Positions 9,013 to 39,786 of a stretch of 64,000 nt of DNA are shown here, piece by piece; the stretch's first letter is position 1; the number at the start of each line of letters is the position of its first letter. The stretch is taken from assembly GCA_045637165.1 (NCBI GenBank), contig JAZTYU010000009.1, positions 17,456 to 81,455 on the forward strand, given 5' to 3'. The notes beneath the pieces are model-generated. The model saw nothing but the letters and a program-made list of their open reading frames with translations. It did not search any database and was not told the DNA's origin. The translations under genes were made by a program, and so were the position numbers. The stretch is from Candidatus Enterousia sp. GTDB taxonomy: Bacteria; Pseudomonadota; Alphaproteobacteria; Rs-D84.

Positions 9013-9546
9013 ATGAATATATTTGAATATTTTAAATCAAAAAAAACTAACCAACAACCTATCGAGGCTATTCCTGCCGAAGTTGCCCCTGTTGCAAAAA
9101 CTATTCCTGCAAACCACATCAGCAAAAAGAAAAAGAACACATACAAAATTATGTTTAATCCATTTACTGCCTATGAAATGTTTGCGTTATGCAAGAACAC
9201 CCCATTGGCAATTATTGAATTAAATGGCATCCACCAGGACACACAATCAGGTTGGGTTTCCGCCAAAGATTTTCCAAACCCATGTGCCACTGACATGGCT
9301 GCCCAGCAAGAACTAATAAAAAAAATAACTGGCGAAAAAATCGCAACAACAATCATTGAATATCTGGACAAAAGCACTGGCAAACCTGTTATTCAAATAT
9401 ACCCAGGAATGATACACATATTCGATGAATACGAACAAGATTACGAATCACACTTAAATCATAAATCACGCCGTGATTTAAAATATCAAATTGCCCTGCG
9501 TGAAAAATTATGGGCAGAATTTGCAAAAAGCCAAAACCAAAAATAA
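9013..9546 (+). CDS. Hypothetical protein (177 aa)
   Basis: Clean ORF with promoter upstream and a strong terminator downstream; no recognisable domain. Confidence 0.5.
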   Translation: MNIFEYFKSKKTNQQPIEAIPAEVAPVAKTIPANHISKKKKNTYKIMFNPFTAYEMFALCKNTPLAIIELNGIHQDTQSGWVSAKDFPNPCATDMAAQQELIKKITGEKIATTIIEYLDKSTGKPVIQIYPGMIHIFDEYEQDYESHLNHKSRRDLKYQIALREKLWAEFAKSQNQK

Positions 9547-9569
9547 AAAACACCTTCGGGTGTTTTTTT
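9547..9569 (+). terminator. Intrinsic terminator
   Basis: aaaacacc-ttcg-ggtgttttttt immediately after the stop codon. Confidence 0.8.
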
Positions 9570-9570
9570 A

Positions 9571-9862
9571 TGGTATTCCCCCCGAAAAAAATATAAAATA
9601 AAAAACGAAGACATAGGGATATGGCTTCGGGACCGTAAGAAAGTCCTTGTTTTACGTCAGTGTGCATACGCACATTGGTATCCGCACAATGCGGCGCATT
9701 TTGCGTCGTTTTTACAACAACCGACTTTTTACGTCGGGGCGCTGTGGGGCATACAACAGGGTTTAACCCGAAACCCCACAGGGTCATTTCGTAAAACATG
9801 ATTTTCTTAACGCCCCGACCGCTTGTTCCCCAGCGGTCTTTTCTTTTACACAGGGGGAATAA
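9571..9862 (+). ncRNA. GC-rich, highly structured ~290-nt region ending in a hairpin/T-run terminator; candidate sRNA or structured 5' leader of the downstream gene
   Basis: Several nested inverted repeats (gtgc-atac-gcac; ccgca-caa-tgcgg; ctgtgggg...ccccacag enclosing ggg-ttta-accc; gtcggggcg...cgccccgac) and a final gaccgc-ttgttcccca-gcggtc hairpin followed by ttttctttt at ~9822-9850. GC content contrasts with the AT-rich surroundings. It matches no RNase P, tmRNA or SRP motif that I can recall. Confidence 0.3.
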
Positions 9863-11113
9863 ATGAAAAAATTTTTTATCATACTAACACTTGCACTTAC
9901 AATTACACAATCACACGGGGCAAAATTAAAATATCCACACCTTAGTCAATACTGGGGCAATGGTGAAATGAATTACTGTGGCGATAATGATATTGCCAAC
10001 GCCTGCATCGGCGAAGCAACCAAACACAAATGCGCCCCCGGCAAAATTTACTCTGCCCGTTACCAATTTTACAATGGCAAATACACATACACTGATGAAT
10101 TTTCAAACCTGATGATGATGGCACGTGAATTTAATGAACACGGCGCACTATTTTGCCCAACACAACTTGACGGACAAAACGAAAACGACAGCAAAGGCTA
10201 TACCGCATACTATGAACCCAATGGCACAAATACCTGTGTATGGCTGTGCCAGGCGGGTTGGACTGGCCCAAACTGCAACGCACACACAACCGAATTTGAT
10301 GGCACTTGCAACCTAAACAAATTTTTGCGTTCAAACTACTCCGACATCAAATCTGTCCACGATTTTGATAAAAACAGCAAAGGAAATATAGAAGACCAAA
10401 TACCATTTTTTTATATAAACGATTATCAAACATGCTCATATATAAAATCCAACGGCAACACATCCAGCATAAAAGAGAACGAACACGATATGGGGTTATT
10501 TATTACCCGATGGCTGGACAGTGGCAACGGCGCATTTGCCCGTCAAATGATTGTCCTGTCAAAACGAACCGGCACAAATTCATCGGACATATATGTCTAT
10601 CCTGCATCAAAAAGCACCGAAATTCTGGTATGTATCAACGGCTACCAACCAAATTTAGCCGGCACCGATTGCGAACCAATAAATCACGAATCCTGCACAA
10701 TGACGGTCGCATCCCAAAATATGTGTGGCGGTTGGACATTATCGGGCTTTGATTCCGAACAACACGTCCTGACCGATTCTGATGGTTGCTATAAATACAC
10801 CTGCAAAAAAACGGGCTATGCCTTTGCAGGCATTGCCGACCATACCTGCACCGAATGCACAACCACAAACCGTGGCGGTATAGAACCAAACAACGGCACC
10901 TGTGTAAAATGCCCCAGTGGCACCATATTCAATAAAAAGGACACTGCAAATAACTTTTGCAGTCCCGCAATCGGTCTTTCTAAGTCAGATATGATGTATG
11001 GTCGTGGCAAGACAAAAAATAACGCCGGCAATATATCTGAACAATGTTGGACAATGACCGACCCCGACAAATACAAAGAATGTGTTCTGAATCAAAATAA
11101 CGGGTCGAAATAA
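9863..11113 (+). CDS. Secreted cysteine-rich protein with EGF-like module
   Basis: Signal peptide MKKFFIILTLALTITQSHGA; ~30 Cys; CVWLCQAGWTGPNC matches the EGF-like C-x-C-x2-G-W-x-G-x2-C pattern; further CxC/CxxC clusters (CTECTTTNRGGIEPNNGTCVKCPSGT). Confidence 0.6.
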   Translation: MKKFFIILTLALTITQSHGAKLKYPHLSQYWGNGEMNYCGDNDIANACIGEATKHKCAPGKIYSARYQFYNGKYTYTDEFSNLMMMAREFNEHGALFCPTQLDGQNENDSKGYTAYYEPNGTNTCVWLCQAGWTGPNCNAHTTEFDGTCNLNKFLRSNYSDIKSVHDFDKNSKGNIEDQIPFFYINDYQTCSYIKSNGNTSSIKENEHDMGLFITRWLDSGNGAFARQMIVLSKRTGTNSSDIYVYPASKSTEILVCINGYQPNLAGTDCEPINHESCTMTVASQNMCGGWTLSGFDSEQHVLTDSDGCYKYTCKKTGYAFAGIADHTCTECTTTNRGGIEPNNGTCVKCPSGTIFNKKDTANNFCSPAIGLSKSDMMYGRGKTKNNAGNISEQCWTMTDPDKYKECVLNQNNGSK

Positions 11114-11125
11114 ATTCGACCCTTT

Positions 11126-11770
11126 TTATATATTTTTTGCTTTATACGAACAAATATGCGCTGCTGCACAGTTTGCACAATCTGGCCGCAAGGCCTTGCA
11201 CACATAACGCCCATGCAAAACCATCACATGATTTACAATTGAATGATATTTTTTTGGAATAAATTCCAGCAACCTACGTTCAACCTTTTCTGGTGTATTA
11301 TCCGCATCACTAACCCACCCATAACGATGTGCATTTCGAAAAACGTGCGTATCCACACCAATATTCGGTGCCCCCCACAGAACATTACAAACAACATTTG
11401 CTGTCTTTTGCCCAATACCTGGCAACTGCATCAAATTATCTCGATTGTGATATTTTTCAGGGAACACATCTTCAACAGATTCTGCAACCAAACGCTCGGC
11501 CAAGGCAATGATATTCTTTGCCTTGTTATTAAAGAATGAAATAACCCTGATATGCTCTTTTAATCCGTCCAACCCCAACGCCAACATTTTTTTGGGCGTT
11601 GATGCCACACGAAACAATTCAGGCGTCACCTCATTCACCTTTTTATCGGTTGCCTGGGCAGACAGAATAACCGCCACGGCAAAATTAAATTCATTTGTAT
11701 GATACAGTTCCGACCGAATAGTCATATCAACGGTCGGAATAACTGCATCAAAATATTGTGCCGGTTTCAT
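11126..11770 (-). CDS. nth: Endonuclease III
   Basis: HhH-GPD motif (LPGIGQKTANVVCNVLWG) and C-terminal 4Fe-4S Cys cluster (CKALRPDCANCAAAHIC). Confidence 0.9.
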   Translation of the reverse strand: MKPAQYFDAVIPTVDMTIRSELYHTNEFNFAVAVILSAQATDKKVNEVTPELFRVASTPKKMLALGLDGLKEHIRVISFFNNKAKNIIALAERLVAESVEDVFPEKYHNRDNLMQLPGIGQKTANVVCNVLWGAPNIGVDTHVFRNAHRYGWVSDADNTPEKVERRLLEFIPKKYHSIVNHVMVLHGRYVCKALRPDCANCAAAHICSYKAKNI

Positions 11771-11783
11771 ATCTACCTATTTT

Positions 11784-14700
11784 TTATGCTTTTTTAACAG
11801 CAATACTGAACGAATATCCTTCGATATCGGTGTTGTATTCACCTTCACTGATATTCATTTCAACAACCAGCGCATCACGCATAATGCGACGCTTGTGCTG
11901 TTCGATTGCATTTGCCAATGCTGGTTCTGCCGTATATGTCAAAATAATTCTATCTGACACATCCAGCCCTGCTGCCTTGCGAGTATCCTGAATAAAACGC
12001 AATGCGTCATTAGCCAATCCTTCGGCGACCAACTCGGCACTGATTTCAGTATCTAGCACAACAACAGCAGTATTATCTGACAATGCCGCACCTGTAATCC
12101 CAGGCCGCACGGTCAAACGCATTTCAAATTCATCTGCGTTCAGCACATGCCCTGAGGCAAGCAACTTATCACCATCGATTTCATAATCGCCACGTTTTAC
12201 TGCTGGGATAATTTCTTTTAATGCCCCCCCCAAACGGGCACCAATTTTTGGTGTAATCAAATAGACAAAGCTATCTGCAACCGATTCTATATTTGCATCA
12301 AACTTAATCGATTTCACATTTAATTCGTCCTTGATAATATCTGCATACTTTTCCAGATTTACCCCTGCCACAGTCAACATATTTAACGGCAAACGATTAC
12401 GCAATCCATATTGTTCACGCAACTGTTTACCAACAGACACGATTGCCTGCACACGACGCATATCATCAACGATTTCGTTATCGACATCACCTGGCACAGG
12501 GAACTTGGTCAAATGCACGGATTCATCCCCTGTCAAGTTTGTAAAGATATATTCAGAAACGAACGGTGCGAACGGTGCCAAAACCCTGCATACGCCGGTC
12601 AACACGGTCCACAGCGTATCAAACGCATCTTGTTCTTCATCCCAGAATCTTGCACGACCACGTCTGATATACCAGTTATTTAATATATCCAAGAATCGCA
12701 CAAATTCCTTGATCGCGGCATCAGGCTTATATTCATCCAACGACTTTTTCACTGCTGCAACCAGAACATTTAATTCTGCCAAAATATATTTATCCAACGC
12801 ATTTTCTGGATTTACCATTTCACGTGCTGTGATATTTCCTGCATTTGCATACAATGTAAAGAAGTGATATGCATTCCACAGCGGCGTTTGAATAGTTTTT
12901 GTTGATTCGACAAAAACTTTACCCTCTTTATCAACAGGCACAGGTTCTGCCTTCATAAAATTAGACCCCAAGATATACAAACGCACTGCATCTGCACCAT
13001 ACTGTTCAATCTGTTCACTTGGGTCAACAAAGTTCCGCAAAGATTTCGAAAACTTCTTTTTATTTTCATCAACCACCATACCATTTGCAGACACAACCCT
13101 AAACGCAGGCTTATCAAACAAAGCCGTTGCCAAAACCATCAACGCATAGAACCAACCACGTGTTTGGTCTTGTCCTTCGATAATATAGTCTGCTGGGAAC
13201 GTTGCATTAAACCGGTCAACATTTTCAAATGGATAGTGCAACGACGCCCATGGCATAGACCCTGATTCCACCCAGCAATCTAAAACATCTGGAATACGCA
13301 CCCATCCATCCTTGGTCAGTTTATCCAACGTTGGGCGATGCAAATCATCAACCGGTACACCAAAGAATTCTTCTAGTTCTGCAATAGAACCAAAGATTTT
13401 ATATTCACCATCTTTTTCCCAGATTGGCAACGGCATACCCCAGAAACGATTTCTGGATATAGACCACGGACGAGCATTTTCAATCCACGAACGGAAACGT
13501 TCCCCTGCACTGGTCCAATTCACGGTTGCATTATTTGCCAACAATTTATCTTTGATTTTTGGCACATCGATATACCACGAATCGGTTGCACGCTGAATCA
13601 ATTTTTCTTTGGACCTATCCCCAAACGGATACGAGTGTTTATATTGTTCTTTTTTGACCAAGCGACCATTTGCCTTTAACCAATCCATAATTTTTGGTGT
13701 TGCAGCAAAGATATTTTCCCCTGCGAAATCGACAACTGTTTCATCAAAGTTCCCATATGTCCCAACATTTAACAGCACAGGGAATTTTGGGTCAATATTT
13801 TTTGCCGCCCAAAAGTCTTCTGCCCCATACGCAGGTGCGATATGAACAATACCTGTTCCATCTGAATCAGAAACATAATCTGCTGGGATTACCTGGAACA
13901 ACAAATCAGATTGCCCTGCATAATATGGGAACAACGGTCCATAGTGCAATCCAACCAAGTCAGCCCCTTTGACAGAACCAATCTGCGTTGCATTTGCAAA
14001 CTGTTTTTCATATGCCTTTAATCGACTTGCGGCGACGACATAGACCGCCCCATCACTGTCCTGCATACGCAGATATTCCATATTTGGATTTACCGCCAAC
14101 GCTGAATTTGCAGGCAACGTCCATGGCGTAGTCGTCCATGCAATTGCACGGTCGCCATTTTCCAGTTCGAACCAAACAGTCACCGCATCATCAACAATTT
14201 CACGATAATCACTGGACGCTTCTGAATTAGAAATCACCGTCCCATTTACCCAATCATATGGATTTACACTGTAATCTTTGTATAACAATCCCTTTTCATA
14301 CAAGGACTTTAACGTCCACAGCATAGATTCCATATAGTTCTTATTCATGGTCTTATAACCATATTCATCGCCTATATCGACCCAACGTCCCATACGCTGA
14401 ATAAAATGATTCCACTCATTCGTATACGTCATAACGTCCGACCGACACATATCACAGAATGCCGCAATTCCATCATTTGCAACAATATCCTTGGCGGCCC
14501 GCCCCTGTTTTTTTTCAACCGAATTTTCCGCAGGCAATCCATGGCAATCCCATCCCAATTCACGACGAACGAAACGTCCGTTCATTGTCTGGAAACGTGC
14601 GACCATATCCTTGACCACCGACACCCCCAAATGTCCCCAGTGTGGCAAACCATTTGCAAAAGGCGGCCCGTCATAGAAACTAAACGGATGTCCCTGTTTA

Positions 14701-14813
14701 GTCTGTTCCAACGACTTATGGAAAGTATTTTCATCTGCCCACTTTTTCAAGACACCTTGTTCCAAGGCTGTAAAATCTGGACGTGCATCAGTTTTTGTAT
14801 AAGCCATATTCAT
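11784..14813 (-). CDS. ileS: Isoleucyl-tRNA synthetase, eukaryote-like (type 2) form
   Basis: ~1000 aa class I aaRS: HIGH-region variant PFANGLPHWGHL, KMSKS variant KKFSKS, editing domain, and the long C-terminus typical of type 2 IleRS. SD AGGTGA precedes the ATGs; the ORF track begins at a GTG at 14816. Confidence 0.93.
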   Translation of the reverse strand: MNMAYTKTDARPDFTALEQGVLKKWADENTFHKSLEQTKQGHPFSFYDGPPFANGLPHWGHLGVSVVKDMVARFQTMNGRFVRRELGWDCHGLPAENSVEKKQGRAAKDIVANDGIAAFCDMCRSDVMTYTNEWNHFIQRMGRWVDIGDEYGYKTMNKNYMESMLWTLKSLYEKGLLYKDYSVNPYDWVNGTVISNSEASSDYREIVDDAVTVWFELENGDRAIAWTTTPWTLPANSALAVNPNMEYLRMQDSDGAVYVVAASRLKAYEKQFANATQIGSVKGADLVGLHYGPLFPYYAGQSDLLFQVIPADYVSDSDGTGIVHIAPAYGAEDFWAAKNIDPKFPVLLNVGTYGNFDETVVDFAGENIFAATPKIMDWLKANGRLVKKEQYKHSYPFGDRSKEKLIQRATDSWYIDVPKIKDKLLANNATVNWTSAGERFRSWIENARPWSISRNRFWGMPLPIWEKDGEYKIFGSIAELEEFFGVPVDDLHRPTLDKLTKDGWVRIPDVLDCWVESGSMPWASLHYPFENVDRFNATFPADYIIEGQDQTRGWFYALMVLATALFDKPAFRVVSANGMVVDENKKKFSKSLRNFVDPSEQIEQYGADAVRLYILGSNFMKAEPVPVDKEGKVFVESTKTIQTPLWNAYHFFTLYANAGNITAREMVNPENALDKYILAELNVLVAAVKKSLDEYKPDAAIKEFVRFLDILNNWYIRRGRARFWDEEQDAFDTLWTVLTGVCRVLAPFAPFVSEYIFTNLTGDESVHLTKFPVPGDVDNEIVDDMRRVQAIVSVGKQLREQYGLRNRLPLNMLTVAGVNLEKYADIIKDELNVKSIKFDANIESVADSFVYLITPKIGARLGGALKEIIPAVKRGDYEIDGDKLLASGHVLNADEFEMRLTVRPGITGAALSDNTAVVVLDTEISAELVAEGLANDALRFIQDTRKAAGLDVSDRIILTYTAEPALANAIEQHKRRIMRDALVVEMNISEGEYNTDIEGYSFSIAVKKA

Positions 14814-14825
14814 CACCTGTTTTTA

Positions 14826-14915
14826 AATTAAAAACGGGCGCCCACGCGCCCCAGCCACCGCCAAAGCGCAGTCGCCAGTTATTTAATAATAATTATTGTT
14901 GTCTGAATCATCACG
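14826..14915 (-). promoter_or_regulatory. Putative transcription attenuator of ileS: Ile-rich leader peptide plus intrinsic terminator
   Basis: On the minus strand, ATG at 14911 encodes MIQTTIIIIK (ATG ATT CAG ACA ACA ATA ATT ATT ATT AAA TAA; stop at 14879-14881). About 27 nt downstream is the hairpin GGGCGCGTGGGCGCCC (14836-14851) followed by GUUUUUAAUUU. Then come the SD AGGTGA and the ileS start. Confidence 0.6.
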
Positions 14916-15050
14916 CACCAGGATAAAACAAAAACCTCAAAAAATCAAGTAATTGTATAAATTTCCCTACCCATAAAAAGCCGGCAAAAGCAAAATTTCA
15001 AATAAAAAAACCCCGGACTGGGATTTTTTTATTTGGTTTTCCTCATCATT

Positions 15051-16589
15051 TTATTGGATACCGACGCGGAACTCATCGCCCCAGTTAGAAATCACCTGAC
15101 CTCCAACAGTGCATTGAATATCTTCGAAACCATCTTCGATTTGGTTCTTTTTTACAATATTACTGGTTATCAAGCCCCCAGCAGTTCCCAAAACAACCCC
15201 TGCCACAGAATCTGATACCAAACGTGAAGTATTAAAATTACCTTTTTCGTCTTTCCAGACACTGACCTTGAATCCAGAACGAATCGAATCCAACACATCT
15301 GCCGCACTGGTTATACGTTTTTGAATCGCCGACACTTCAGCCTCCGCTTCCAATTTTTCACGCTTCGCACGTGCATCATCAGATTCAACACAGGCAGTCC
15401 CTGCATCATTTAATACCTTGTCATCATCTTTGCAACGACATTCTTTTTCTATCATATCCCACACAGCACCAACAACTTTCTCGCAATTTTCAATCGCAGG
15501 ATTCAAAACACATTTCTTACCCCGATAAATATTACGTGGATTATCGCATTTACATTGACCTGTTTCCCAATATGCTCCTGTTCCAGACGCAGCCTCGCAT
15601 TCACGTCGTGCAGTGGCTTCATCTGTCAAATCACATTTGTTTCCATTGCGTTTGTAATTATCATCTAAGCAAACACAAACACCACCATCTTCACGTAAAT
15701 TTTTAGCATTATCACATTTGCACAAACTACCTTTCCACTCCCCACCAGAATCACGACATCTTTTTGCTTTTTGTTGATTTTGCTGTTCTTGCTGTTTCCG
15801 TCTATTATCATCCTCTTCTTTCTTTTTTCTTTCCTTGAATTCTTTGGTTTCAACACAGCCCTGGGTCGCTGATTTAAATTCGTAATCATTATTGATACAT
15901 TCACAAGCGGTTCTGTCTGCTTTTAATTTCAAATTTTTTCCTGCATCACAAGAACAAGTATTATTCGACCAAACGCCACCAGACGTTTCACAAACATTTT
16001 GCCGATTGTCCACTATACAATCTGTTTTAGCTGTATTTGGAATATACCCTTCATTACACGCATAATAAACACAGGCATCATTCCCTGCCAATGTAATATC
16101 GTTATCACCAGCTGTCTCGGTATGGGTTGTTTTTGAACCGGCCAACAGATATCTTGTGCGTCCATTTTCTGTTGCTGCTTGTTTTAGAGGAGAATTGTTA
16201 CAAACAACTGTTGGATTATATGACCGCCACTCGTCCCAAGCCCCAGTAATATCTACACATTGAAACAAATGAATAATTTCATTATCATGCACATCACGTT
16301 GCCCAATAATACGCCCATAACCACACTCTTGCCCATTATTAAATGCCCCATTATCACTATCACAAGAATAACATTGGTCGCTACCTGGGTGCGAACGAAT
16401 GTATTCTTGGTTTTCACCAACAGCCAAATCATTATCTGGACACGCCGCTAAAATACATTTTTGCAAAGAGCTTCCCGCCGAATAAGTTAATGGTTGCATC
16501 CCATACCCATATGTCGGACTTGCAAAACTTGCCCCACCTGCAAGCATAAAGATTCCACAAAAAACTGACAGCATCAGAATTTTTTTCAT
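15051..16589 (-). CDS. Secreted cysteine-rich repeat protein (512 aa) with a charged coiled-coil segment
   Basis: Signal peptide MKKILMLSVFCGIFMLAGGASFA; repeated ~30-aa Cys modules (CSCDAGKNLKLKADRTACEC; CKCDNAKNLREDGGVCVC; CKCDNPRNIYRGKKC; CRCKDDDKVLNDAGTAC); central KE/Q-rich stretch; sigma70-like promoter upstream. Similar in style to the 9863 gene. Confidence 0.6.
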   Translation of the reverse strand: MKKILMLSVFCGIFMLAGGASFASPTYGYGMQPLTYSAGSSLQKCILAACPDNDLAVGENQEYIRSHPGSDQCYSCDSDNGAFNNGQECGYGRIIGQRDVHDNEIIHLFQCVDITGAWDEWRSYNPTVVCNNSPLKQAATENGRTRYLLAGSKTTHTETAGDNDITLAGNDACVYYACNEGYIPNTAKTDCIVDNRQNVCETSGGVWSNNTCSCDAGKNLKLKADRTACECINNDYEFKSATQGCVETKEFKERKKKEEDDNRRKQQEQQNQQKAKRCRDSGGEWKGSLCKCDNAKNLREDGGVCVCLDDNYKRNGNKCDLTDEATARRECEAASGTGAYWETGQCKCDNPRNIYRGKKCVLNPAIENCEKVVGAVWDMIEKECRCKDDDKVLNDAGTACVESDDARAKREKLEAEAEVSAIQKRITSAADVLDSIRSGFKVSVWKDEKGNFNTSRLVSDSVAGVVLGTAGGLITSNIVKKNQIEDGFEDIQCTVGGQVISNWGDEFRVGIQ

Positions 16590-16661
16590 ATCCTTTCCCC
16601 TTTGAATCTAGATATCATTATTGCTTTTATTTTACCATAATTACTCCATCAATCCAAATAT

Positions 16662-16688
16662 AAAAACGCCCAAACGGGCGGTTTTTAT
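16662..16688 (-). terminator. Intrinsic terminator after dnaA
   Basis: cgccc-aaac-gggcg hairpin with a T-run on the minus strand (aaaaacgcccaaacgggcggttttta). Confidence 0.6.
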
Positions 16689-17962
16689 TTACATTCATTT
16701 ACAAACTGTTGTATCTGCGCTGCCAAAACCAAATCATTTGCTTTTTGCTTTTCAATCTGTTTGATTGCATACAAAACTGTTGCATGATCACGACCACCAA
16801 CAAAATTACCAATTTCTGACAAAGACAACTGTGTCGCTTCTTTTAATACAACCATCATAATCTGACGTGCCAAGACCAATGAACGACTGCGACCGGTGCC
16901 ACAAACTGCATCATATGAAACTGCCAATTTTTCACACATATCTTTGACCATTGCTGTTGGTGTTTTTGCAGTCTGCAATGTATCTGCCAACAAACGCTGT
17001 GCAATTTCCATATCAACATTTGCACCCATCAATTCAACATATGCTTTGATTTTTGTTGCAACACCTGCGATTTGATGCCCATCATTTGCAATACGTTTTA
17101 CCAAAACATCTGCAACATCTGATTTTACACCTGCACGTTTCAACATAACTGACTTCACATATGTATTTGGTGCAATGACATCTGCAACCAAACCTGATGC
17201 CAACAACCCCTGGGCATGACGATCAAAACCTGTCAAATTGCTTGGTGCTGCATTTGCAGTGATAACAATATTTTTGCCAGCGTTGCGTAAATCAACAACC
17301 AACTGCAAGAATTCTTCTGTTGATGCTTTCTTGCCACTTAATGCCTGAACATCATCCAAGATAAATGTTTCGCAATTACGGCAGAAATCTTTGAATGCGA
17401 AAACATTGTGTTCTTTCAGACTGCGTGTGAATTCAGAAACAAACTGTGCACCACTCATCTTTACAACTTTTGAATTTGATGCACCACAAATGCATTCTGC
17501 CAACAAAGATTTACCACAACCTGCCGCACCATAGATAAACAATGGTGAAAACGCAACCACACCTGCTGCAACTTTCTTGCATGCAGAAACAACAAACATA
17601 TTTTCATCTGATGTAACAAAAGCATCAAAAGCAACGTTTGTAGCAACTGGTGTTGCGACTGGTGCGAATGCCTGTGCCTTGTTGTCATTTGCAACTGATG
17701 TTGCGGCAACCTTGGCATTACGAACAACAACTTTTACACCCAAACCAAAAGATGCAGCAACATCTGATAAAACACCTGCATGAACACTGTTGATAAAATC
17801 CGCTGAAAACTGATTTTGTGCACCTAATACCAAAACACCATCTACAACATCAAAAGACAAAGGTGCAATCCAAGAAGTAAATGTAGCAGAATCGACTTTT
17901 GCAGCAATGGCCCCTTTGATTGTTTCCAGGTTTGTCATTTTAATTTTTACTGCTGTCTGCAT
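16685..17962 (-). CDS. dnaA: Chromosomal replication initiator DnaA
   Basis: AAA+ Walker A (GAAGCGKSLL), sensor motifs, C-terminal DNA-binding domain IV (GGRDHATVLYAIKQIEK). The ORF track starts at a TTG at 18028; the ATG at 17962 (MQTAVKIKM) is likelier. Confidence 0.9.
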   Translation of the reverse strand: MQTAVKIKMTNLETIKGAIAAKVDSATFTSWIAPLSFDVVDGVLVLGAQNQFSADFINSVHAGVLSDVAASFGLGVKVVVRNAKVAATSVANDNKAQAFAPVATPVATNVAFDAFVTSDENMFVVSACKKVAAGVVAFSPLFIYGAAGCGKSLLAECICGASNSKVVKMSGAQFVSEFTRSLKEHNVFAFKDFCRNCETFILDDVQALSGKKASTEEFLQLVVDLRNAGKNIVITANAAPSNLTGFDRHAQGLLASGLVADVIAPNTYVKSVMLKRAGVKSDVADVLVKRIANDGHQIAGVATKIKAYVELMGANVDMEIAQRLLADTLQTAKTPTAMVKDMCEKLAVSYDAVCGTGRSRSLVLARQIMMVVLKEATQLSLSEIGNFVGGRDHATVLYAIKQIEKQKANDLVLAAQIQQFVNECK

Positions 17963-18156
17963 TCTGTTTCTCCTTTCCTTCCCTAAAAGAGAGCCGTCTG
18001 AACCAGGTTGTAAAAGCCACCTGCACAAAACACCATTTTCTGCCTTCCTGTTCAGAATTATGATATTTTTATTGTCCTACTTTTAACTCTCTCGCCGTTA
18101 AAATTTTTGAACTTCATTTTATTTCTGGCCTTTGAACCTAAATAAAAATCCATCCA

Positions 18157-19531: not shown

Positions 19532-20416
19532 TTATTCTGACAGGATTACGAAATACGGCTCCCACTTTTCACAGGCATCTGGCTTTTCTGACTCAGCCTC
19601 AACCCAAACTGCATCACCACAATCTTGTTTCAAAGACTTTAATCTATCCATAAACCGTCTGTATTCTGTTTCGTTGTCTTTTTGCAGAACTGCCAACTGC
19701 GAACGCAACAAGCCGACCTGATCATTACGTTCCAAATCTTTTTGTCCTTCTACATCACCACCAATCAACCCGTTTCCAAACAATTCCATTGCACCGACAC
19801 CAACGGCCGCCCCACCAACTGCACCACCAACCGTTGCCCATGTTCGTGCAGATTTCTTGGCATCTAAGATGCGTTCCTTTAACGTCCCTTTATTTGCCCA
19901 TTCACCACACGTGATAATTCTGCCCATTTCATAATATTTTGGCAAAACATCCGCCACACTAATTCTTGAATCATTTGATTTTAACTCGACCTTTACAAAA
20001 CAAGTATTATTATCAGGTTCTTCGATATCTTCAATCATTGTTGAATAACTGCCCAGATTGCTATAACGAGATGCCCAAACAAAAGTATTCCCAACACCAA
20101 TATTATTCTGCAGGCAAGCACGCTTTTCTTTTTCACGCATATCTTTTTCTGCTGGCTTCATCTCTTCTGGTTTTACCGCCAGACTTGCATCAACATCTTC
20201 CACCTTGACACTTGGCTTATTTACCGTCACAGATTCTGGCACCAATACCGCCCCTGCTGAAATCTGGGCCTTGGATGCAACCGCACGTGGTGCCGCCATC
20301 ATCTGATTTGACATCGATGCCCGTCCACGCCCCGTCGCCGGTGTCAATGTCGGCACAGACGCCACTGCAGGTCCAATCCCCAAGATTAAAATAAACACGG
20401 AAAAAAATCTGCTCAT
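19532..20416 (-). CDS. Secreted hypothetical protein with glycine-zipper and coiled-coil C-terminus
   Basis: Signal peptide MSRFFSVFILILGIGPAVASVP; GGAVGGAAVGVGAMELFGNGLIGG segment; no known domain. Confidence 0.5.
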   Translation of the reverse strand: MSRFFSVFILILGIGPAVASVPTLTPATGRGRASMSNQMMAAPRAVASKAQISAGAVLVPESVTVNKPSVKVEDVDASLAVKPEEMKPAEKDMREKEKRACLQNNIGVGNTFVWASRYSNLGSYSTMIEDIEEPDNNTCFVKVELKSNDSRISVADVLPKYYEMGRIITCGEWANKGTLKERILDAKKSARTWATVGGAVGGAAVGVGAMELFGNGLIGGDVEGQKDLERNDQVGLLRSQLAVLQKDNETEYRRFMDRLKSLKQDCGDAVWVEAESEKPDACEKWEPYFVILSE

Positions 20417-21515: not shown

Positions 21516-22511
21516 TTATAACCCCAAACGATAAATTTTGACATAACTGGTTGAACTTGAGCCAATCCCACCACTGCCACCTGCACCGCCGTTTGCGTTT
21601 ACGCCAACCCCAAACAATCCCCCCATTGACGCACCGCCGCCACCGCCACCACCGTATGAATAAAATGTCTGCCCACCACACGAATATGCAACATTTGCAC
21701 CACCCGTTCCACCACTTGACGAACTAGTTCCGAACAACCCACCGATTGACGAGCCACCACCATTACCACCAGCATTATCCGTCGCATCTGCCCCTGCTGA
21801 ACCATTATACAAGAACCCAGACGACTCTTCACCGCCTTTGCCAGCCAATGAACCACCACCCCCTGCACCACAAACAAACCCATTAGCATCCCAGGCGTCT
21901 GCACCAACCGACCCCATTCCCGATTGTGCACCTGTTATACCACCACCGCCTCCTGCGGCACAATCCTGGGCTGTGCCATCAGACTTAGTCGCAACTGCAC
22001 CCATTCCACCTGTTCCACCCTGGGAAATAATATATTTACCATCAACGGCAAAAAAACTTGGCACACCAGATGCACCGCCACCGCCGCCAGAATACAAACC
22101 ACCCGACGAATTCACGCCACCTGCCTTACCATCACTGCCACGTAAAAGATAAACATCAGTTGTCTGATATAAATTAAAACTCAAATACTCTTCTGTAGTT
22201 ACAGAGCCTTCATCTCCATTATTACCACCAGCACCACCTTTACCACCCATAACCACAACCGAATAACACCCCGGACTTAAACTTACCTTTTCACACGAGT
22301 CAAATTTTGTTGCCTCATAAACCAATGTTGATTTTCCGATTGTCCACGAAGCATCACCTTCACCAACGACTAAACTGTCAGCACAGGCCCCCAAATGAGC
22401 TTCTGCATAGTAAAGATTTCCAGAAGAATCCATGAACTTAAGTGCCGGTTGCGTTGTCTGAACCGTCTGCAAAACAATTTGAATATCAGCAATATTTATT
22501 GCAGGCATCAC
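21516..22511 (-). CDS. Glycine-rich protein (331 aa); probable C-terminal part of a split tail-fibre-like gene
   Basis: Long GGxGG/GGAGG repeats with no signal peptide of its own. Its ATG (22509-22511) is in the same frame as, and 3 codons after, the TAA of the upstream 22518..22919 ORF. Confidence 0.45.
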   Translation of the reverse strand: MMPAINIADIQIVLQTVQTTQPALKFMDSSGNLYYAEAHLGACADSLVVGEGDASWTIGKSTLVYEATKFDSCEKVSLSPGCYSVVVMGGKGGAGGNNGDEGSVTTEEYLSFNLYQTTDVYLLRGSDGKAGGVNSSGGLYSGGGGGASGVPSFFAVDGKYIISQGGTGGMGAVATKSDGTAQDCAAGGGGGITGAQSGMGSVGADAWDANGFVCGAGGGGSLAGKGGEESSGFLYNGSAGADATDNAGGNGGGSSIGGLFGTSSSSGGTGGANVAYSCGGQTFYSYGGGGGGGASMGGLFGVGVNANGGAGGSGGIGSSSTSYVKIYRLGL

Positions 22512-22517
22512 ACAACC

Positions 22518-22919
22518 TTAGTTAAACCAGACGTAAACCTGTCCTTCTGGTGGCGTGCCAGTCGGTGCAACAGTTGGAATCGTTCCAAAACGCACATCAT
22601 CACCAGCTGCAACTGTATTAGCAGTTGTTCCAACAGGCAACCGACCATACGAAACTGTCCCAGAAGACAAATTATTTGCATTTGTCTGGTCAACATTCTT
22701 TACATTTTCTAAACCAACCTGTGCAGCCGTAACAGCATGCGGATTTGACTTATTTGTCGTATGACTATTAAATTCAGTTTTATCAACTTTATTACTTGCT
22801 ACCGCCGCAACAATTGCATCAACATACCCCTTGGATGTTAAATTTGCACGACAAACAGCTGGGAAAAACAATCCCCCAGACAAAAACATACAAATTAAAA
22901 CAATACGTTTTAACACCAC
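22518..22919 (-). CDS. Secreted protein with a phage-tail-fibre-like motif (133 aa); probable N-terminal part of a split gene
   Basis: Signal peptide MVLKRIVLICMFLSGGLFFPAVC. HAVTAAQVGLENVKNVDQTNANNLSSGT resembles the (T/A)AAQVGLGNV motif common in phage tail-fibre proteins. A sigma70-like promoter lies upstream. Confidence 0.5.
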   Translation of the reverse strand: MVLKRIVLICMFLSGGLFFPAVCRANLTSKGYVDAIVAAVASNKVDKTEFNSHTTNKSNPHAVTAAQVGLENVKNVDQTNANNLSSGTVSYGRLPVGTTANTVAAGDDVRFGTIPTVAPTGTPPEGQVYVWFN

Positions 22920-22984
22920 AAAATCCCATTTAATGAAAATGCCACCAAAATAACCACCAGCACTTCATTCAATCCTACGACACC

Positions 22985-23014
22985 ATTATAAGAAAAAAAC
23001 CGAATCTGTCGCAA
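22985..23014 (-). promoter_or_regulatory. Sigma70-like promoter for the 22919 gene
   Basis: Minus strand reads TTGCGA, 18-nt spacer, TATAAT. Confidence 0.45.
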
Positions 23015-23149
23015 CAAAAAAATCAGTTTTCTACTCAGTACAAAAAAACACATATAAACAACAAGTTAGCACACAATAAACAAAACATACTAATGTGGTA
23101 AACTTTATATAAAACATGACAATTTATAAAGACACGAGTTTTCAACACA

Positions 23150-23350
23150 AAAAATTAAATAAAATGATTTAGATGCGGACAGTGTCGTCCCCGCAGTGCC
23201 CAGAAGCGACACAAGGAAACGACACCGTTCACAGATGAATTATCAACAAATAAGTGAAATTAAATAGAATGATTTAGATATGCGAAAATCCGTTGGTGTA
23301 GTGTATTGAACATACATGAGCCAACGGATTTACGCATAGATGAATTATTA
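23150..23350. repeat. Tandem pair of ~105-bp elements with conserved termini and divergent GC-rich hairpin cores
   Basis: Unit 1: aaattaaataaaatgatttagatgcgg + variable hairpin (gtgtcgt...acgacac) + cacagatgaattat. Unit 2: gaaattaaatagaatgatttagatatgcg + variable hairpin (ccgttgg...ccaacgg) + catagatgaattat. The pair ends at the secretin stop codon. Confidence 0.5.
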
Positions 23351-23358
23351 TATTTAAT

Positions 23359-24987
23359 TTAGTTCAGTGGTGCACCCCAGTGCTGTTGTATCCCACGCTC
23401 TACATCCATTGGGCTAACCAAAACCTGTGGTGTCAAGATAACCACCAAGACCTCACGAGTTGCCGATGTTTCACGAGAACCAGACAACGCCATAAAGTCA
23501 GGGTCCCCCAAACCATAACGTGTATCTTCATTGGTCTGCTTTTCAAACCCTGAAACAACTAACATCTGGCCAGATTCCATAATCACTTCCTGCATAAAGC
23601 TACGTTCTTCGACTTCTGGCAATTGCAAGGTCACCTCACCAATTGTCTGGGTTGACATACGCAACAATTCACGAACAGACATACGGAACAACAACAAGAT
23701 TCGACCATTTTCTAATACATTTGGCAAAAGCTGCATTGTAAATCCTGTTTCCAAATCATCTTGGTCAACAGTGCTAGATTCGACTGTTGTAAAGTTTCTA
23801 GATTCGAAACGTTTGATATAACCAGTTGTTCTAGTATTGCTGACTGGTGCAACACGATTTGAACGTGTTGTGACACCAACATTTGTGACCAAAGAAACCT
23901 TACCCTGCTTTGCCAACGCCTGAATCAAAGCATTACTACCAGCCGCCCCTGACAAGGAACCATTCATAATCTGGTCGTTAGTATATGCCCCTTCAACGGT
24001 TGAAGAACCTTCCTGATGTGTTGCACCAGTCAATGCAGAAACTGTATTTGACAGAACTGCAATATTCATCGAACTAGCCTCAGTCGATGCCAAATTATTT
24101 TTTGGATTTGCAACAATATTCAACCCAGAAGCAGAATTTATTGCTGCTGCCAAGTTCAAACCAAATGCAGAATCATTTGAAATCGTAACCTGTAATACCT
24201 TTACATCGATTGTAATCAACTGACTTAGACGTTTGTTTTGACGTTCGATATATTCACCAACACGTGCTAAAATAGATGGTGATGCCGTCACTGTGATTGT
24301 TCCCAAACTGCGCGAAACTGTAAAGTCTGCATTTGAAGCCTTACCAATAATTGAAGAAATCGCACTTTCAACTTCATCCCACTCTTTCAACGTAGATTCC
24401 AAAGACACTTCATTAGAATTATCTGTCGAAACAGATGTCTGATATGCAACTTCTGTTCCTAATGCGTATAATGTAAATGTTTTCGTTTCTGTTTCATAGA
24501 ACACAATAGAATTTTTATCGTAATACCATAACAAATCCAAGTCTGTCGCGACCTGGCTCAACAAGCCTGACAATTTACCAGTATAAGCAATATTTACCTG
24601 TTTCTTTAATTTTTCTGCTGAAACCTGACCATCGATTTTTACCGGAATCCCCGTAATTGAATAAATATCATTTGCCAAAACCTGCAACGACACTGGTTCA
24701 TCTAACAAGATTGTCACACCTGTATCTGTTTCAAACTTTGACGGCAAATTATTGCGATGTTCCAATACCATTGATTTACTGCCCAACCAAACACCCTCGG
24801 ACATAGAAACAGTATCACCAGTAGCCACCTTTGCCCTTGGATTTTTCGCCATTTCAAATGCATCGTATGCATTGATAAAATCCTGGTCCACAGATGCCGC
24901 AACCTTGGCAGACTCTTTTCTGGCACACCCCGTAATTGTTGCAAGAACTAAACTGCCCAAAATCAAAAGTTTAAATGGAATTTTCAT
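23359..24987 (-). CDS. Lipoprotein secretin of the PilN/TcpC/BfpB (type IVb pilus) family
   Basis: Lipobox LATITGC; 542 aa; C-terminal secretin domain (GQMLVVSGFEKQTNEDTRYGLGDPDFMALSGSRETSATREVLVVILTPQVL). Confidence 0.65.
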   Translation of the reverse strand: MKIPFKLLILGSLVLATITGCARKESAKVAASVDQDFINAYDAFEMAKNPRAKVATGDTVSMSEGVWLGSKSMVLEHRNNLPSKFETDTGVTILLDEPVSLQVLANDIYSITGIPVKIDGQVSAEKLKKQVNIAYTGKLSGLLSQVATDLDLLWYYDKNSIVFYETETKTFTLYALGTEVAYQTSVSTDNSNEVSLESTLKEWDEVESAISSIIGKASNADFTVSRSLGTITVTASPSILARVGEYIERQNKRLSQLITIDVKVLQVTISNDSAFGLNLAAAINSASGLNIVANPKNNLASTEASSMNIAVLSNTVSALTGATHQEGSSTVEGAYTNDQIMNGSLSGAAGSNALIQALAKQGKVSLVTNVGVTTRSNRVAPVSNTRTTGYIKRFESRNFTTVESSTVDQDDLETGFTMQLLPNVLENGRILLLFRMSVRELLRMSTQTIGEVTLQLPEVEERSFMQEVIMESGQMLVVSGFEKQTNEDTRYGLGDPDFMALSGSRETSATREVLVVILTPQVLVSPMDVERGIQQHWGAPLN

Positions 24988-25022
24988 AATTATTTTCTCC
25001 TACGACATCTTGTTCCAGATAA

Positions 25023-25970
25023 TTATTCTTCTGTGGTTGAAATCACCAACACTCTATTACCCTTATAGAATTTTGCGTATGGCACAGGCGTTGCACGTCC
25101 AAAATTACGAACCAACGCAGACGCAACATCAACAAAACGCCCCTTAAATACCGCACTTGCCTCTATTGGATATTCACGTGATGTTGTCCAAACCAAATCC
25201 CAACCTTCTTTATCACACCACGACTGCAAGACTTCACGCAATGTCTGACCATTTGCAACAACCCATGAACGAACTTGGTCCGTCATGACTGCTGGTGCCT
25301 CTGCATCTGCGGATGTATCAACAGCAATTTCTGTTTCTTCTTCGATAACAACTGTGCCATCACCCGACGTGTTTGAAATACGCATACCGTCAGCCGTCAC
25401 CCCCTCTACCTTCATACCATTACGAACCGCAAAGGCCTCATATCCATCTGCATACTTTCCACAGGTTTTACGACTGCTGCGCGAAACCGCCAAAACATTA
25501 CCACCATCATCTTCCAAGACTTCACGATGCAACAATGGCATTTCCGAAGAACCATCACATTCATCAGCAAACCCAACAGGGATTTGATTTCCATGCAGCA
25601 TATTTGCCCCACCAGACCAACCAGCAAATTCACCACGTGCCCCCAGATTAAAATTATTTTCAACAACCAAATCCGCCCCAACTTTGGACACAATACGAAT
25701 ATTATCCTGCTGTTTTGTTTTGGAACACAACGCCCCCTCGCATACAACCTCTACGTCTGCATCAGACCCTGCCAATGGCCACGCTGGCACTTCACGTGCG
25801 ACCTGAACATTTTCCTCTACATCAACCTGGGTTGTATCAACCTGTCCATCAACAATTCTATCCTGTTCATAAAACACCTGGGACGTAACAACCTGGGGCA
25901 ACGAACCTGCTGCAAAGCAATATCCAGCAGCAGTTGCAAACATTGCGACAATCAAAATTTTGCGGAACAT
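25023..25970 (-). CDS. TcpQ/PilL-domain periplasmic protein (partner of TcpC/PilN-type secretins)
   Basis: Signal peptide. C-terminal ~90 aa (GQTLREVLQSWCDKEGWDLVWTTSREYPIEASAVFKGRFVDVASALV) resembles the TcpQ C-terminal domain. It sits 35 nt upstream of the secretin gene. Confidence 0.5.
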   Translation of the reverse strand: MFRKILIVAMFATAAGYCFAAGSLPQVVTSQVFYEQDRIVDGQVDTTQVDVEENVQVAREVPAWPLAGSDADVEVVCEGALCSKTKQQDNIRIVSKVGADLVVENNFNLGARGEFAGWSGGANMLHGNQIPVGFADECDGSSEMPLLHREVLEDDGGNVLAVSRSSRKTCGKYADGYEAFAVRNGMKVEGVTADGMRISNTSGDGTVVIEEETEIAVDTSADAEAPAVMTDQVRSWVVANGQTLREVLQSWCDKEGWDLVWTTSREYPIEASAVFKGRFVDVASALVRNFGRATPVPYAKFYKGNRVLVISTTEE

Positions 25971-39225: not shown

Positions 39226-39786
39226 TTACTTTTCCAATTTACCCCAACCTGCTTTATATCCACCATCACGTTCCAGATAGATATTTGCACCATTTAATTG
39301 GGCTGCACTCATTCCCTGAATCATATAAGTCTGATTCAAGCGACCACTTTGCCCCGTCTGCAACATAGGCAAATTCATATCAAAGCGTTTTGCTTCATTA
39401 CAACACTTGGCGTCATTATAGCAGGATGCACATTGATACAATTTTACATTATATTGCACACCTGGACGCATATCCTTCAAATCAACCATCATTTTCAAAC
39501 CATTATCTGTATCTTTGAACTTGATATGTCCCATTTTTGATTCACCGCCACGACTGCTGTGGGTGTACATTTTTGCATAGACACTATTTACATCAGCATT
39601 TTCGTATGTCTGATAAACGACAATTGTATCAGTTGCCTCAACAACTTCTACGGGTTGTGCATGTTGAACTTTTTTATGATGATGTGTCATTTTTTTATTT
39701 GGACATTCCATCATACATCCTGACAACAACACCGCAACCCCAAAGATTGATGCAAACATAAACATTTTTTTTGTAAAGTTTTTCAT
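39226..39786 (-). CDS. Lipoprotein with weak Cu/Zn-superoxide-dismutase-like fold, apparently lacking metal-ligand histidines
   Basis: Lipobox LLSGC; His-rich segment HHHKKVQH; MGHIKFKDTDNGLKMMVDLKDMRPGVQYNVKLYQ aligns loosely with the SodC beta-barrel (GSVTITETDKGLEF...PGEHGFHIH), but the HxH ligands are replaced. Confidence 0.35.
   Translation of the reverse strand: MKNFTKKMFMFASIFGVAVLLSGCMMECPNKKMTHHHKKVQHAQPVEVVEATDTIVVYQTYENADVNSVYAKMYTHSSRGGESKMGHIKFKDTDNGLKMMVDLKDMRPGVQYNVKLYQCASCYNDAKCCNEAKRFDMNLPMLQTGQSGRLNQTYMIQGMSAAQLNGANIYLERDGGYKAGWGKLEK

Follow-up and report, generated by a model that had tools for sequence, protein, structure and literature searches.

How bacteria of the uncultured order Rs-D84 attach to and live off a partner is not known (PMC12306168). 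The present analysis concerned a 64,000-nucleotide stretch of a Candidatus Enterousia sp. contig (JAZTYU010000009.1, positions 17,456 to 81,455, hereafter the window). An initial annotation, made from the sequence alone, had pointed to two secreted cysteine-rich proteins flanking nth and ileS, here called A and B, and had read them as carriers of eukaryote-like epidermal growth factor (EGF) modules. Both open reading frames (ORFs) were confirmed, A at 9863-11113 on the forward strand (416 aa) and B at 15051-16589 on the reverse strand (512 aa), with nth (HhH-GPD, 11126-11770, reverse) and ileS (11784-14816, reverse) between them; dnaA (16685-18028, reverse) and dprA lay beyond B, and orf177 and a gene for a parE/gyrB-type topoisomerase subunit preceded A. 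The two proteins were as rich in cysteine as had been claimed, with 22 residues in A (5.3%) and 32 in B (6.2%) against a median of 0.96% (standard deviation 1.21) in 50 long non-overlapping ORFs of the window, among which both were outliers by more than three standard deviations. With a probability of about 0.55, we read A and B as unrelated, lineage-specific, Sec-exported and disulfide-rich envelope proteins that are not EGF domains, B being a core display protein with a head, a stalk and an anchor, and A an accessory protein placed behind an attenuator-type leader RNA. The two proteins and the leader are concrete candidates for the contact machinery of these bacteria and for its regulation.

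A and B were unrelated to each other save for one short hairpin, and their genomic status was opposite, B being core and A accessory. The only shared element was the motif C-x2-GY-x-PN-x3-TDC, which extended over about 18-28 residues (hhalign E = 1.7e-4, probability 49%). Sec export was supported in both by a basic n-region, a hydrophobic core and a small-x-small cleavage site, recognized by inspection and conserved in the homologues, in agreement with the signal peptides already proposed. No paralogues of A or B were found elsewhere in the 64 kb.

Candidatus Enterousia and its order, common in the guts of humans, ruminants, birds and termites, have genomes of 0.75-1.0 Mb, lack the tricarboxylic acid cycle and respiration, possess few transporters, and are inferred to be obligate symbionts or parasites of other cells (PMC12306168). 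The source bacterium is a gut-dwelling, Candidatus Enterousia-like organism with a genome of about 0.8-1 Mb, probably dependent on a partner. Named homologues of A and B came solely from metagenome-assembled genomes (MAGs) of uncultured gut Alphaproteobacteria or 'Rickettsiales'. The earlier view of host-interaction factors in a compact symbiont genome therefore survived in one part: the guess of a compact symbiont was right, because of the genome size and inferred lifestyle of the lineage, and the exported cysteine-rich proteins and the fast-evolving ectodomain of B agree with it, whereas the EGF or eukaryotic modules were not recovered. A literature search for Rs-D84 together with cysteine-rich proteins found nothing.

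The features of gene B are as follows.

15051 to 16589, reverse strand: gene B, coding for a 512-aa protein with predicted export and 32 cysteines, a core gene of the order Rs-D84.
16591 to 16680, reverse strand: region upstream of B, with the dnaA terminator hairpin (16667-16680), a candidate extended -10 element TGGTAAAAT (16629-16637) and the Shine-Dalgarno sequence GGGGAAAGGA (16591-16600).
16518 to 16589, reverse strand: signal peptide, residues 1-24, ending in AGGASFA and followed by SP, by inspection; homologues have AxA sites.
16020 to 16457, reverse strand: variable N-terminal cysteine-rich beta domain, residues 45-190, with a predicted local distance difference test (pLDDT) score mostly of 80-93.
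15384 to 16019, reverse strand: four CxC modules, residues 191-247, 278-321, 331-362 and 369-402, defined by alignment and by matches of relatives to Pfam DUF5874.
15273 to 15380, reverse strand: long helix or coiled-coil stalk, residues 404-439, in the AlphaFold model.
15054 to 15257, reverse strand: near-invariant C-terminal module, residues 445-512 (68 aa), defined by column entropy and by a nonsynonymous divergence (dN) of 0.
14999 to 15035, reverse strand: terminator hairpin past B, 16 pairs.

The gene order dprA-dnaA-B-(orf177)-parE was held in most of 80 loci, even where only the C-terminus matched B. More than 500 homologues were found in MAGs of gut Alphaproteobacteria, all of them hypothetical proteins, and 290 loci occurred among species representatives of GTDB. 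Paralogues were present in some genomes, in tandem, convergent or dispersed, and shared the C-terminus; the N-terminal domain and the number of CxC modules varied within the family. The window differed from the usual synteny in that ileS, nth and A were inserted between B and orf177. The latter gene (9013-9546, forward) encodes 177 aa without a signal peptide or a Pfam match and was kept between B and parE in most Rs-D84 loci (32-57% identity).

The signal peptide of B displayed two lysines and a hydrophobic core on inspection and was the most hydrophobic 19-mer of the protein (Hessa -0.33). AlphaFold modelled most of residues 45-440 at pLDDT >85. The N-terminal domain, the fastest-evolving part, ended in the hairpin shared with A. 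The modules and the coiled segment described previously were both present. Six CxC motifs (at 212, 229, 290, 305, 346 and 384) fell into four mutually alignable modules of the form C-x3-(G)G-x-W-x3-5-CxC-(D)-x2-(K)N(L)-x5-8-C, the first two being extended by a second CxC...C unit, and the KE/Q-rich segment was modelled as a 32-residue helix (residues 249-280, pLDDT >90) that, along with shorter helices, separated the modules.

The C-terminal module held W445, FNTSRL, a glycine zipper G464-x3-G468-x3-G472 within SVAGVVLGTAGGLITSNIV, and K480-K481, and ended in FRVGIQ. The three zipper glycines lay in the hydrophobic stretch and were kept in 60, 68 and 67 of 68 family members, respectively; the Pfam Gly-zipper families did not match the module. 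Past the 19-residue hydrophobic stretch and the lysine pair came a tail of 32 residues with C493, the sole cysteine outside the ectodomain, which was invariant. Column entropy was 0.26-0.89 bits in this module compared with about 2.2 bits elsewhere in the family. The nearest genome, a Candidatus Enterousia sp. MAG (L007; B 88% identical, flanking DNA 93-96% identical), gave ratios of nonsynonymous to synonymous divergence (dN/dS) that were higher in the N-terminal domain (0.43) and in the modules (0.23) than in neighbouring housekeeping genes (0.016-0.13), with dN = 0 in the C-terminal module. The model of this module stayed below a pLDDT of 50 despite the deep alignment of 68 sequences. Homologue searches with the C-terminal 79 residues returned contig-end fragments alone and were uninformative on architecture. 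B is, as we would read it, a newly identified core, fast-evolving envelope display protein with an invariant anchoring module.

Synonymous divergence (dS) from L007 was uneven along the gene, with values of 0-0.03 for the signal peptide, stalk and C-terminus of B and for orf177, while the neighbouring genes and the central part of B gave 0.14-0.33. The pattern points to mosaic recombination, by which the head of B is replaced.

Twenty-five of the 68 B family members matched DUF5874 (PF19202) at E <= 1, and a few of them, including P0034 (31.7 bits) and P0068 (33.2 bits), exceeded the cut-off of 27.1 bits; B itself gave no match at E <= 1. Since B is homologous to proteins that contain DUF5874 (E down to 1e-90), it can be taken as a divergent member even though unmatched. 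The literature search found no publication that mentions this family.

Taken as a head-stalk-anchor display protein, B would carry, after cleavage of the signal peptide, the cysteine-rich beta domain and four DUF5874-type CxC hairpin modules (30 cysteines, about 15 disulfides). This head would be held on two long helices and tethered to a membrane, inner or outer, by the 68-residue C-terminal module, whose extreme conservation suggests docking onto, or oligomerisation within, a conserved envelope partner. The module is probably not a simple transmembrane helix, because it is marginally hydrophobic (Hessa +4.4 kcal/mol, Kyte-Doolittle 1.52, compared with Hessa values of -0.1 to +0.9 in PlsY control helices) and was left unmodelled by AlphaFold; it more likely folds when it oligomerises or meets a conserved partner. 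The quick variation of the head is as expected for a surface in contact with other cells, host material or phages, and B would act as an adhesin or a receptor-like contact protein. Two observations weigh against this: the organism is a diderm (genes for an outer-membrane protein, LpxI and a secretin were seen), in which a protein anchored by a C-terminal alpha-helix would normally keep its head in the periplasm, and the marginal hydrophobic segment, not modelled by AlphaFold, also counts against a membrane tether.

A competing reading of B, which we consider rather unlikely, is an inner-membrane-anchored periplasmic protein (type I topology, with a cytoplasmic tail) that has a structural or sensing role and is not a surface adhesin; it could span the periplasm as a rigid spacer or tether, or act in signalling as a receptor that engages a cytoplasmic partner through its conserved tail. 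With D460 on the outer side of the hydrophobic 19-mer and K480-K481 behind it, the flanks fit the positive-inside rule, and 30 cysteines before this segment against one invariant cysteine after it are what a tail in a separate, reducing compartment would predict. Weak IpaB_EvcA matches over the coil and hydrophobic segment in 9 of 68 members, the core and syntenic position of the gene beside dnaA rather than in an accessory region, and a conserved protein in the neighbourhood with a similar Gly-rich segment point in the same direction. Conversely, the segment is poorly hydrophobic for translocon insertion and no helix was modelled, simple anchors are rarely invariant across 68 residues, and a fast-evolving head with a module number that differs among paralogues is more typical of exposed proteins.

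This neighbouring protein (called X; 19532-20416, reverse) has 294 aa with a signal peptide, several cysteines and a hydrophobic segment rich in Gly, TWATVGGAVGGAAVGVGAM (Hessa +5.0). It was kept between plsY and dprA in other Rs-D84 loci, had no Pfam match, and may be a partner or an analogue of the glycine-zipper module of B. Three further means of attachment were rejected for B: a lipoprotein lipobox (Phe occupies position -1, and homologues do not keep the site), a PEP-CTERM or GlyGly-CTERM sorting signal (32 conserved residues trail the hydrophobic segment), and a trimeric autotransporter anchor (no match to the YadA anchor, PF03895, or to autotransporter Pfam models with the full protein or the isolated C-terminus, an end in FRVGIQ, and a cysteine-rich passenger).

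Gene A showed the opposite behaviour, and its features are given below.

9863 to 11113, forward strand: gene A, coding for a 416-aa protein with predicted export and 22 cysteines; accessory, from a family of about 374 clusters without a Pfam model.
9863 to 9919, forward strand: signal peptide, residues 1-19, MKKFFIILTLALTITQSHG followed by A after cleavage, by inspection; kept in the family alignment, pLDDT <50.
10040 to 10612, forward strand: N-terminal beta-rich domain, residues about 60-250, with long antiparallel strands in the AlphaFold model.
10235 to 10276, forward strand: motif C125-VWL-C129-QA-GW-T-G-PN-C138, which has the look of the C-terminal half of an EGF domain but with C-x3-C.
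10622 to 11092, forward strand: C-terminal stack of short cysteine-rich hairpins, residues 254-410, from the AlphaFold model and profile comparison.
10631 to 10672, forward strand: hairpin C257-x2-GY-x-PN-x3-TDC270, common to A and B, from hhalign.
11102 to 11122, no strand assigned: bidirectional terminator hairpin common to A and nth, homologous to the single orf177-nth hairpin of L007.
9545 to 9568, no strand assigned: palindromic hairpin AAAAAACACCTTCGGGTGTTTTTT past the orf177 stop codon, terminator-like, at the left end of the stretch missing from L007.

Compared with L007, the window contained 1,564 bp more (9548-11111), immediately upstream of the homologous hairpin. About 13 bp and one bidirectional terminator lie between orf177 and nth in L007, and the alignment to the window ended at 9547; no direct repeats were present at the junctions of this indel. 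The housekeeping genes that flank A homologues differed in every genome examined, and one MAG had two copies. The family proved far larger than the first homologue search had suggested: an exhaustive profile search retrieved 374 clusters (50% identity), 221 of them at E <= 1e-30. Where members had names, these were hypothetical proteins from that same group of bacteria; one protein cluster included LuxR-fragment names, which were dismissed as clustering artefacts. In our reading, A is one of a pool of accessory secreted cysteine-rich proteins that are gained and lost as single-gene units.

The N-terminus of A, with two lysines, a hydrophobic core and an AxA-type site, looks like a Sec signal peptide and does so across homologues. 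AlphaFold gave a model with pLDDT 83.5 and a predicted template modelling score (pTM) of 0.70, in which Foldseek found nothing significant (best E = 0.11 in PDB and 0.02 among the viral structures of BFVD; template modelling (TM) score about 0.1). The modelled fold of A is thus a confident one that has no structural relative in PDB or among viral structures. Family A and the C-terminal module of B are candidates for new Pfam families.

The initial annotation had given both genes their own sigma70-like promoters. A scan of the window returned 22 promoter-like sites as compared to 26.8 +/- 5.1 expected, none of them directly upstream of A or B. The candidate extended -10 element of B, read from the sequence downstream of the dnaA terminator, had been missed by this consensus scan. 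The sole positionally conserved -10 box of A lay 265 nt before the gene, and a structured RNA and a terminator hairpin came between them.

9594 to 9599, forward strand: -10 box TAAAAT of the unit formed by leader RNA and gene A, positionally conserved across copies.
9601 to 9844, forward strand: structured leader RNA of about 245 nt, from the fold z-score, nhmmer (161 bits), RNAalifold and covariation controls.
9610-9615 with 9620-9625 (P1), 9630-9633 with 9643-9646 (P2), 9657-9662 with 9671-9676 (P3) and 9692-9697 with 9703-9708 (P4), forward strand: leader helices P1-P4.
9735-9741 with 9811-9817 (outer stem), 9742-9750 with 9773-9781 (P6) and 9782-9787 with 9798-9803 (P7), forward strand: 3' helices of the leader.
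9733 to 9827, forward strand: leader 3' domain, a near-threshold relative of Rfam sRNA-Xcc1 (RF02221; 33.7 bits, E = 3e-4).
9817 to 9848, forward strand: intrinsic-terminator-like hairpin GACCGC...GCGGTC with a T-run, RNAalifold helix 9, in 22 of 22 copies.
9853 to 9858, forward strand: Shine-Dalgarno sequence GGGGGA of A, read from the sequence.

The ATG of A is at 9863, and the terminator separates the leader RNA from the ribosome-binding site. Against shuffled controls, the 300 nt upstream of A folded with z = -8.6, and the upstream region was 75% identical to that of an A homologue whose protein is 58% identical. Pattern searches of metagenomes provided 24 more copies of the leader and a profile hidden Markov model another two, 26 non-redundant copies being considered. 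The RNAalifold consensus of 22 non-redundant copies comprised 53 base pairs, 33 of them with compensatory changes. Paired cells amounted to 92.6% in the observed alignment, 80.7% after shuffling and about 43% after sliding, and the covariation score was 0.386, 0.171 and about 0.09, respectively (0 of 500 shuffles reached the observed values); segments used in the pattern search, invariant by construction, were excluded as covariation evidence. A TATAAT-like hexamer was present in 18 of 23 non-redundant copies, in 15 of those 14-16 nt ahead of the first hairpin loop, and the copies ended in a GC-rich hairpin and T-run situated 15-50 nt ahead of the downstream Shine-Dalgarno sequence and start codon.

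At least 14 of the 26 copies preceded, within about 55 nt, signal-peptide proteins with 8-23 cysteines from at least nine families; the other 12 preceded one secreted low-cysteine protein, five non-secreted proteins and six doubtful or truncated ORFs. A small cysteine-rich secreted protein different from A followed the leader in L016 and L010. The window held a single copy, and B had no such leader. The leader has not been described before; in this lineage the structured RNA stands ahead of many different genes for secreted cysteine-rich proteins, and the accessory pool of proteins that share it is likewise newly identified. Leader-associated cysteine-rich proteins of L016, L091, L096, L100, L104 and L106, otherwise unrelated, had a common C-terminal signature, CxC-x2-GYY ... 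CxxCP ... T-[DQ]-CY[IL]-x-[SA]G ... G-x-[FY] ... CxY; two of these exceeded the Ephrin_rec_like threshold (26.5 and 24.5 bits; cut-off 23.1).

An Rfam search of the window at gathering scores returned two tRNAs only, and no Rfam riboswitch family matched the leader. Its 5' domain (about 130-150 nt, four covarying hairpins P1-P4) had no Rfam match. The 3' domain scored 33.7 bits against sRNA-Xcc1 in the window and 50.2, 45.5 and 42.2 bits in related copies, all below the gathering score of 53. The consensus of that family, an outer stem enclosing two hairpins, was found in alignment helices 5-8, with 2, 7 and 3 compensatory pairs in helices 5-7. The context was chromosomal, among housekeeping genes, and phage, viral and plasmid records contained no copy; integrase and attC were not specifically searched for.

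The layout of promoter, conserved structured RNA, terminator, ribosome-binding site and ORF indicates that the leader is most likely a cis-acting attenuator or riboswitch-like element. Transcription of A would start at the -10 box about 265 nt upstream and run through the structured RNA, and expression would need read-through of the intrinsic terminator, 15-25 nt ahead of the ribosome-binding site; the leader would make the set of accessory secreted cysteine-rich proteins conditional on some signal. The covariation-supported structure, its 5' and co-oriented position with respect to the ORF and the terminator before the ribosome-binding site are all features of terminator-type leaders. Several points speak against this interpretation. 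About 11 of the 26 copies precede non-secreted or doubtful ORFs, an A-family gene in L089 has no leader, and sRNA-Xcc1 was published as a trans-acting small RNA (sRNA), found in integron cassettes and an APSE phage. Moreover, the antiterminator is conserved only as a potential one: in 92.5% of sequence-pair cells an upstream CCGAC segment is able to pair with the outer stem's 5' strand (candidate hairpin 9721-9726 with 9733-9738), which would give a competing structure that covariation cannot test because this strand is invariant.

The alternative, to which we attach the same low weight as to a periplasmic B, is that the leader does not regulate A and is a stand-alone trans-acting sRNA like sRNA-Xcc1, or else belongs as a structured segment to a mobile gene cassette and simply travels with accessory genes. 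It would account for the presence of an own -10 box and terminator, for the relationship of the 3' domain to an RNA described as trans-acting, and for the fact that leader and A form one indel unit with heterogeneous genes downstream of the copies. On the other side, orientation and distance to the start codon are conserved, the Shine-Dalgarno sequence comes directly past the terminator and leaves no room for a second promoter, and one functional class, signal-peptide cysteine-rich proteins, is strongly enriched. Neither copies on mobile-element records nor, within the limits of the search stated above, integron features or direct repeats at the junctions were found, and published sRNA-Xcc1 copies are themselves upstream of, and co-oriented with, a gene (symE, ORF6N).

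Accepting the cis-acting interpretation, a wider proposal can be put forward, which is tentative and seems to us clearly less probable than the main reading. The leader would be a new class of riboswitch-like attenuator that responds to a signal of partner, host or envelope origin and thereby controls a whole, rapidly exchanged, disulfide-rich contact secretome of the obligately partner-dependent Rs-D84 Alphaproteobacteria; the much shorter sRNA-Xcc1 would be a minimal form of this cis-regulator and not a trans-acting sRNA, and the C-terminal module of B a new envelope-anchoring or sorting domain specific to Rs-D84. The leader offers in any case a new way to read sRNA-Xcc1, an orphan RNA of integron cassettes, and is experimentally tractable.

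Cysteine counts were even in 16 of 16 members of family A and in the ectodomain of 56 of 68 members of family B, whose tail always had exactly one cysteine. Even numbers in exported parts are a classical signature that argues for disulfides, which we accordingly suppose to be present in A and B. Against them stand the anaerobic metabolism of the lineage, which has no respiratory chain (PMC12306168), and a regular-expression screen for DsbA-like exported thioredoxin-fold proteins in about 7% of the genome, in which none was seen and which is uninformative at that coverage. The same two points, together with the resemblance of CxC and CxxC pairs to zinc knuckles, could suggest that the cysteines bind metals (Zn or Fe-S knuckles) in an anaerobe that has no respiratory chain to drive DsbB. 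We hold this to be improbable in view of the strong even-number bias, the lack of co-conserved His and other metal ligands, the confident modelling of the cysteine-rich modules as stacks of beta-hairpins, and the small part of the genome in which Dsb genes were looked for.

The EGF reading itself fared worst. The motif quoted for A had been given as C-x-C-x2-G-W-x-G-x2-C, the spacing of EGF, but the actual sequence, CVWLCQAGWTGPNC, is C-x3-C-x2-G-W-x-G-x2-C; C125 to C138 were conserved in 12-13 of 16 family members. Neither A nor B matched the PROSITE signatures EGF_1 and EGF_2 (PS00022, C-x-C-x(5)-G-x(2)-C; PS01186, C-x-C-x(2)-[GP]-[FYW]-x(4,8)-C). Scans with Pfam, NCBIfam and PADLOC gave no meaningful match for either protein; BpuSI_N and Cas2 matches (E = 0.02-0.04) were dismissed as chance. 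The Pfam models EGF, cEGF, hEGF, EGF_CA, Laminin_EGF and EGF_Teneurin did not match A or B at E <= 1, nor did Ephrin_rec_like (PF07699, cut-off 23.1 bits) match residues 254-416 of A at E <= 5. Relatives came closer, with sub-threshold cEGF (PF12662) matches in 10 of 68 members of family B (best E = 2.9e-4) and 5 of 16 of family A (best E = 0.035), the latter with 11.9-14.4 bits against a cut-off of 26.6 and located on the C-x2-GY-x-PN-x3-TDC hairpin; for A and its relatives together, EGF-family scores lay at 10-14 bits. One relative of A matched EGF_Teneurin on the very motif that had been quoted (CQDGWTGDRC; E = 0.073, 13.6 bits, cut-off 24.3).

Structural searches followed the same trend. 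When profiles of families A and B were run against the whole set of PDB sequences, no match reached E <= 10; a single capsid-protein match (E = 0.26) in the PDB profile searches with family A, family B and the B C-terminus was dismissed. Foldseek matches of B were all non-significant (E 0.15-5, probability <= 0.16, TM <= 0.1), and for A nothing similar was found. The top neighbours of B were near-wholly EGF, furin-like or TNFR-type proteins (Pfs25, fibrillin calcium-binding EGF, LRP2, factor Xa/IXa EGF, and the furin-like repeats of the insulin receptor and R-spondin). There is no evidence of eukaryotic origin, given that the EGF models were not reached, Foldseek was non-significant, PDB profile searches were empty and named homologues occurred only in uncultured gut Alphaproteobacteria. 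The view that A and B carry true EGF-like extracellular domains of eukaryotic descent and act as host-interaction effectors that mimic host proteins is therefore highly improbable, even granting the sub-threshold matches, the EGF and furin-like neighbours of B and the Ephrin_rec_like scores of other genes behind the same leader, since PROSITE patterns, Pfam models, PDB profiles and the cysteine spacing of B all disagree with it.

Other observations concern the remainder of the window and its counterparts. GC skew was strongly negative over positions 1-64000 (-0.05 to -0.38 per 2 kb) and did not change sign at dnaA, so that the replication origin is apparently not beside this gene or the skew is otherwise caused. 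About 500 bp of L007 (10818-11318), between ileS and nth, were missing from the window (11771-11783), a second small indel among housekeeping genes. A 186-aa protein (39226-39786, reverse) with a lipoprotein-like N-terminus (LLSGC) had 3.2% cysteine, the third-highest content in the window. On the reverse strand at 21516-25970, a 331-aa Gly-rich protein and a 133-aa protein adjoined a secretin (23359-24987) and a TcpQ-like gene (25023-25970). In L016 (306-1099), a leader copy with a 173-aa cysteine-rich secreted protein was situated just upstream of rpsT; the rpsT-side site looks like a hot spot for accessory envelope genes, since this unit sits on the side of the secretin-region genes of the window.

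Among known systems, trimeric autotransporters have a head that varies, a stalk of coiled-coil type and, at the C-terminus, a short and strongly conserved anchor for which monomer models are poor. B resembles such head-stalk-anchor adhesins in all these respects; it differs from them in that it lacks a C-terminal aromatic residue and has a 30-cysteine head, atypical for type V passengers. The DUF5874 model covers one 74-residue repeat only, and leaves out the N-terminal domain, the stalk and the invariant C-terminal module of B. The leader has the order of elements of terminating riboswitches and attenuators and, like them, is common to several functionally related genes, whereas its antiterminator is only a candidate and it has no match among Rfam riboswitches. 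With sRNA-Xcc1 it shares the outer stem and the two hairpins enclosed by it, one of which has an AUACAA/GAAA internal loop, as well as the position upstream of a co-oriented gene. It departs from that RNA in its extra covarying 5' domain and canonical terminator and in being chromosomal in Rs-D84 Alphaproteobacteria and tied to secreted cysteine-rich proteins, sRNA-Xcc1 being tied to symE and integrons.

As regards the two proteins, the CxxC...G-x-C-x2-CP-x-G hairpins at the C-terminus of A are similar by eye to Ephrin_rec_like and TNFR-type repeats. EGF differs from both proteins in module length and cysteine spacing: the motif of A does not have C4-x-C5, and the modules of B are spaced 11-1-12/14-1-11/13. 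EGF and cEGF domains are like A and B in being small extracellular modules of disulfide-stapled beta-hairpins, and a C-x2-G-[YW]-x...C hairpin occurs in A and B. In our reading, A and B use modules of this kind and fall into the same general structural class as EGF and furin-like repeats, not as members of those families.

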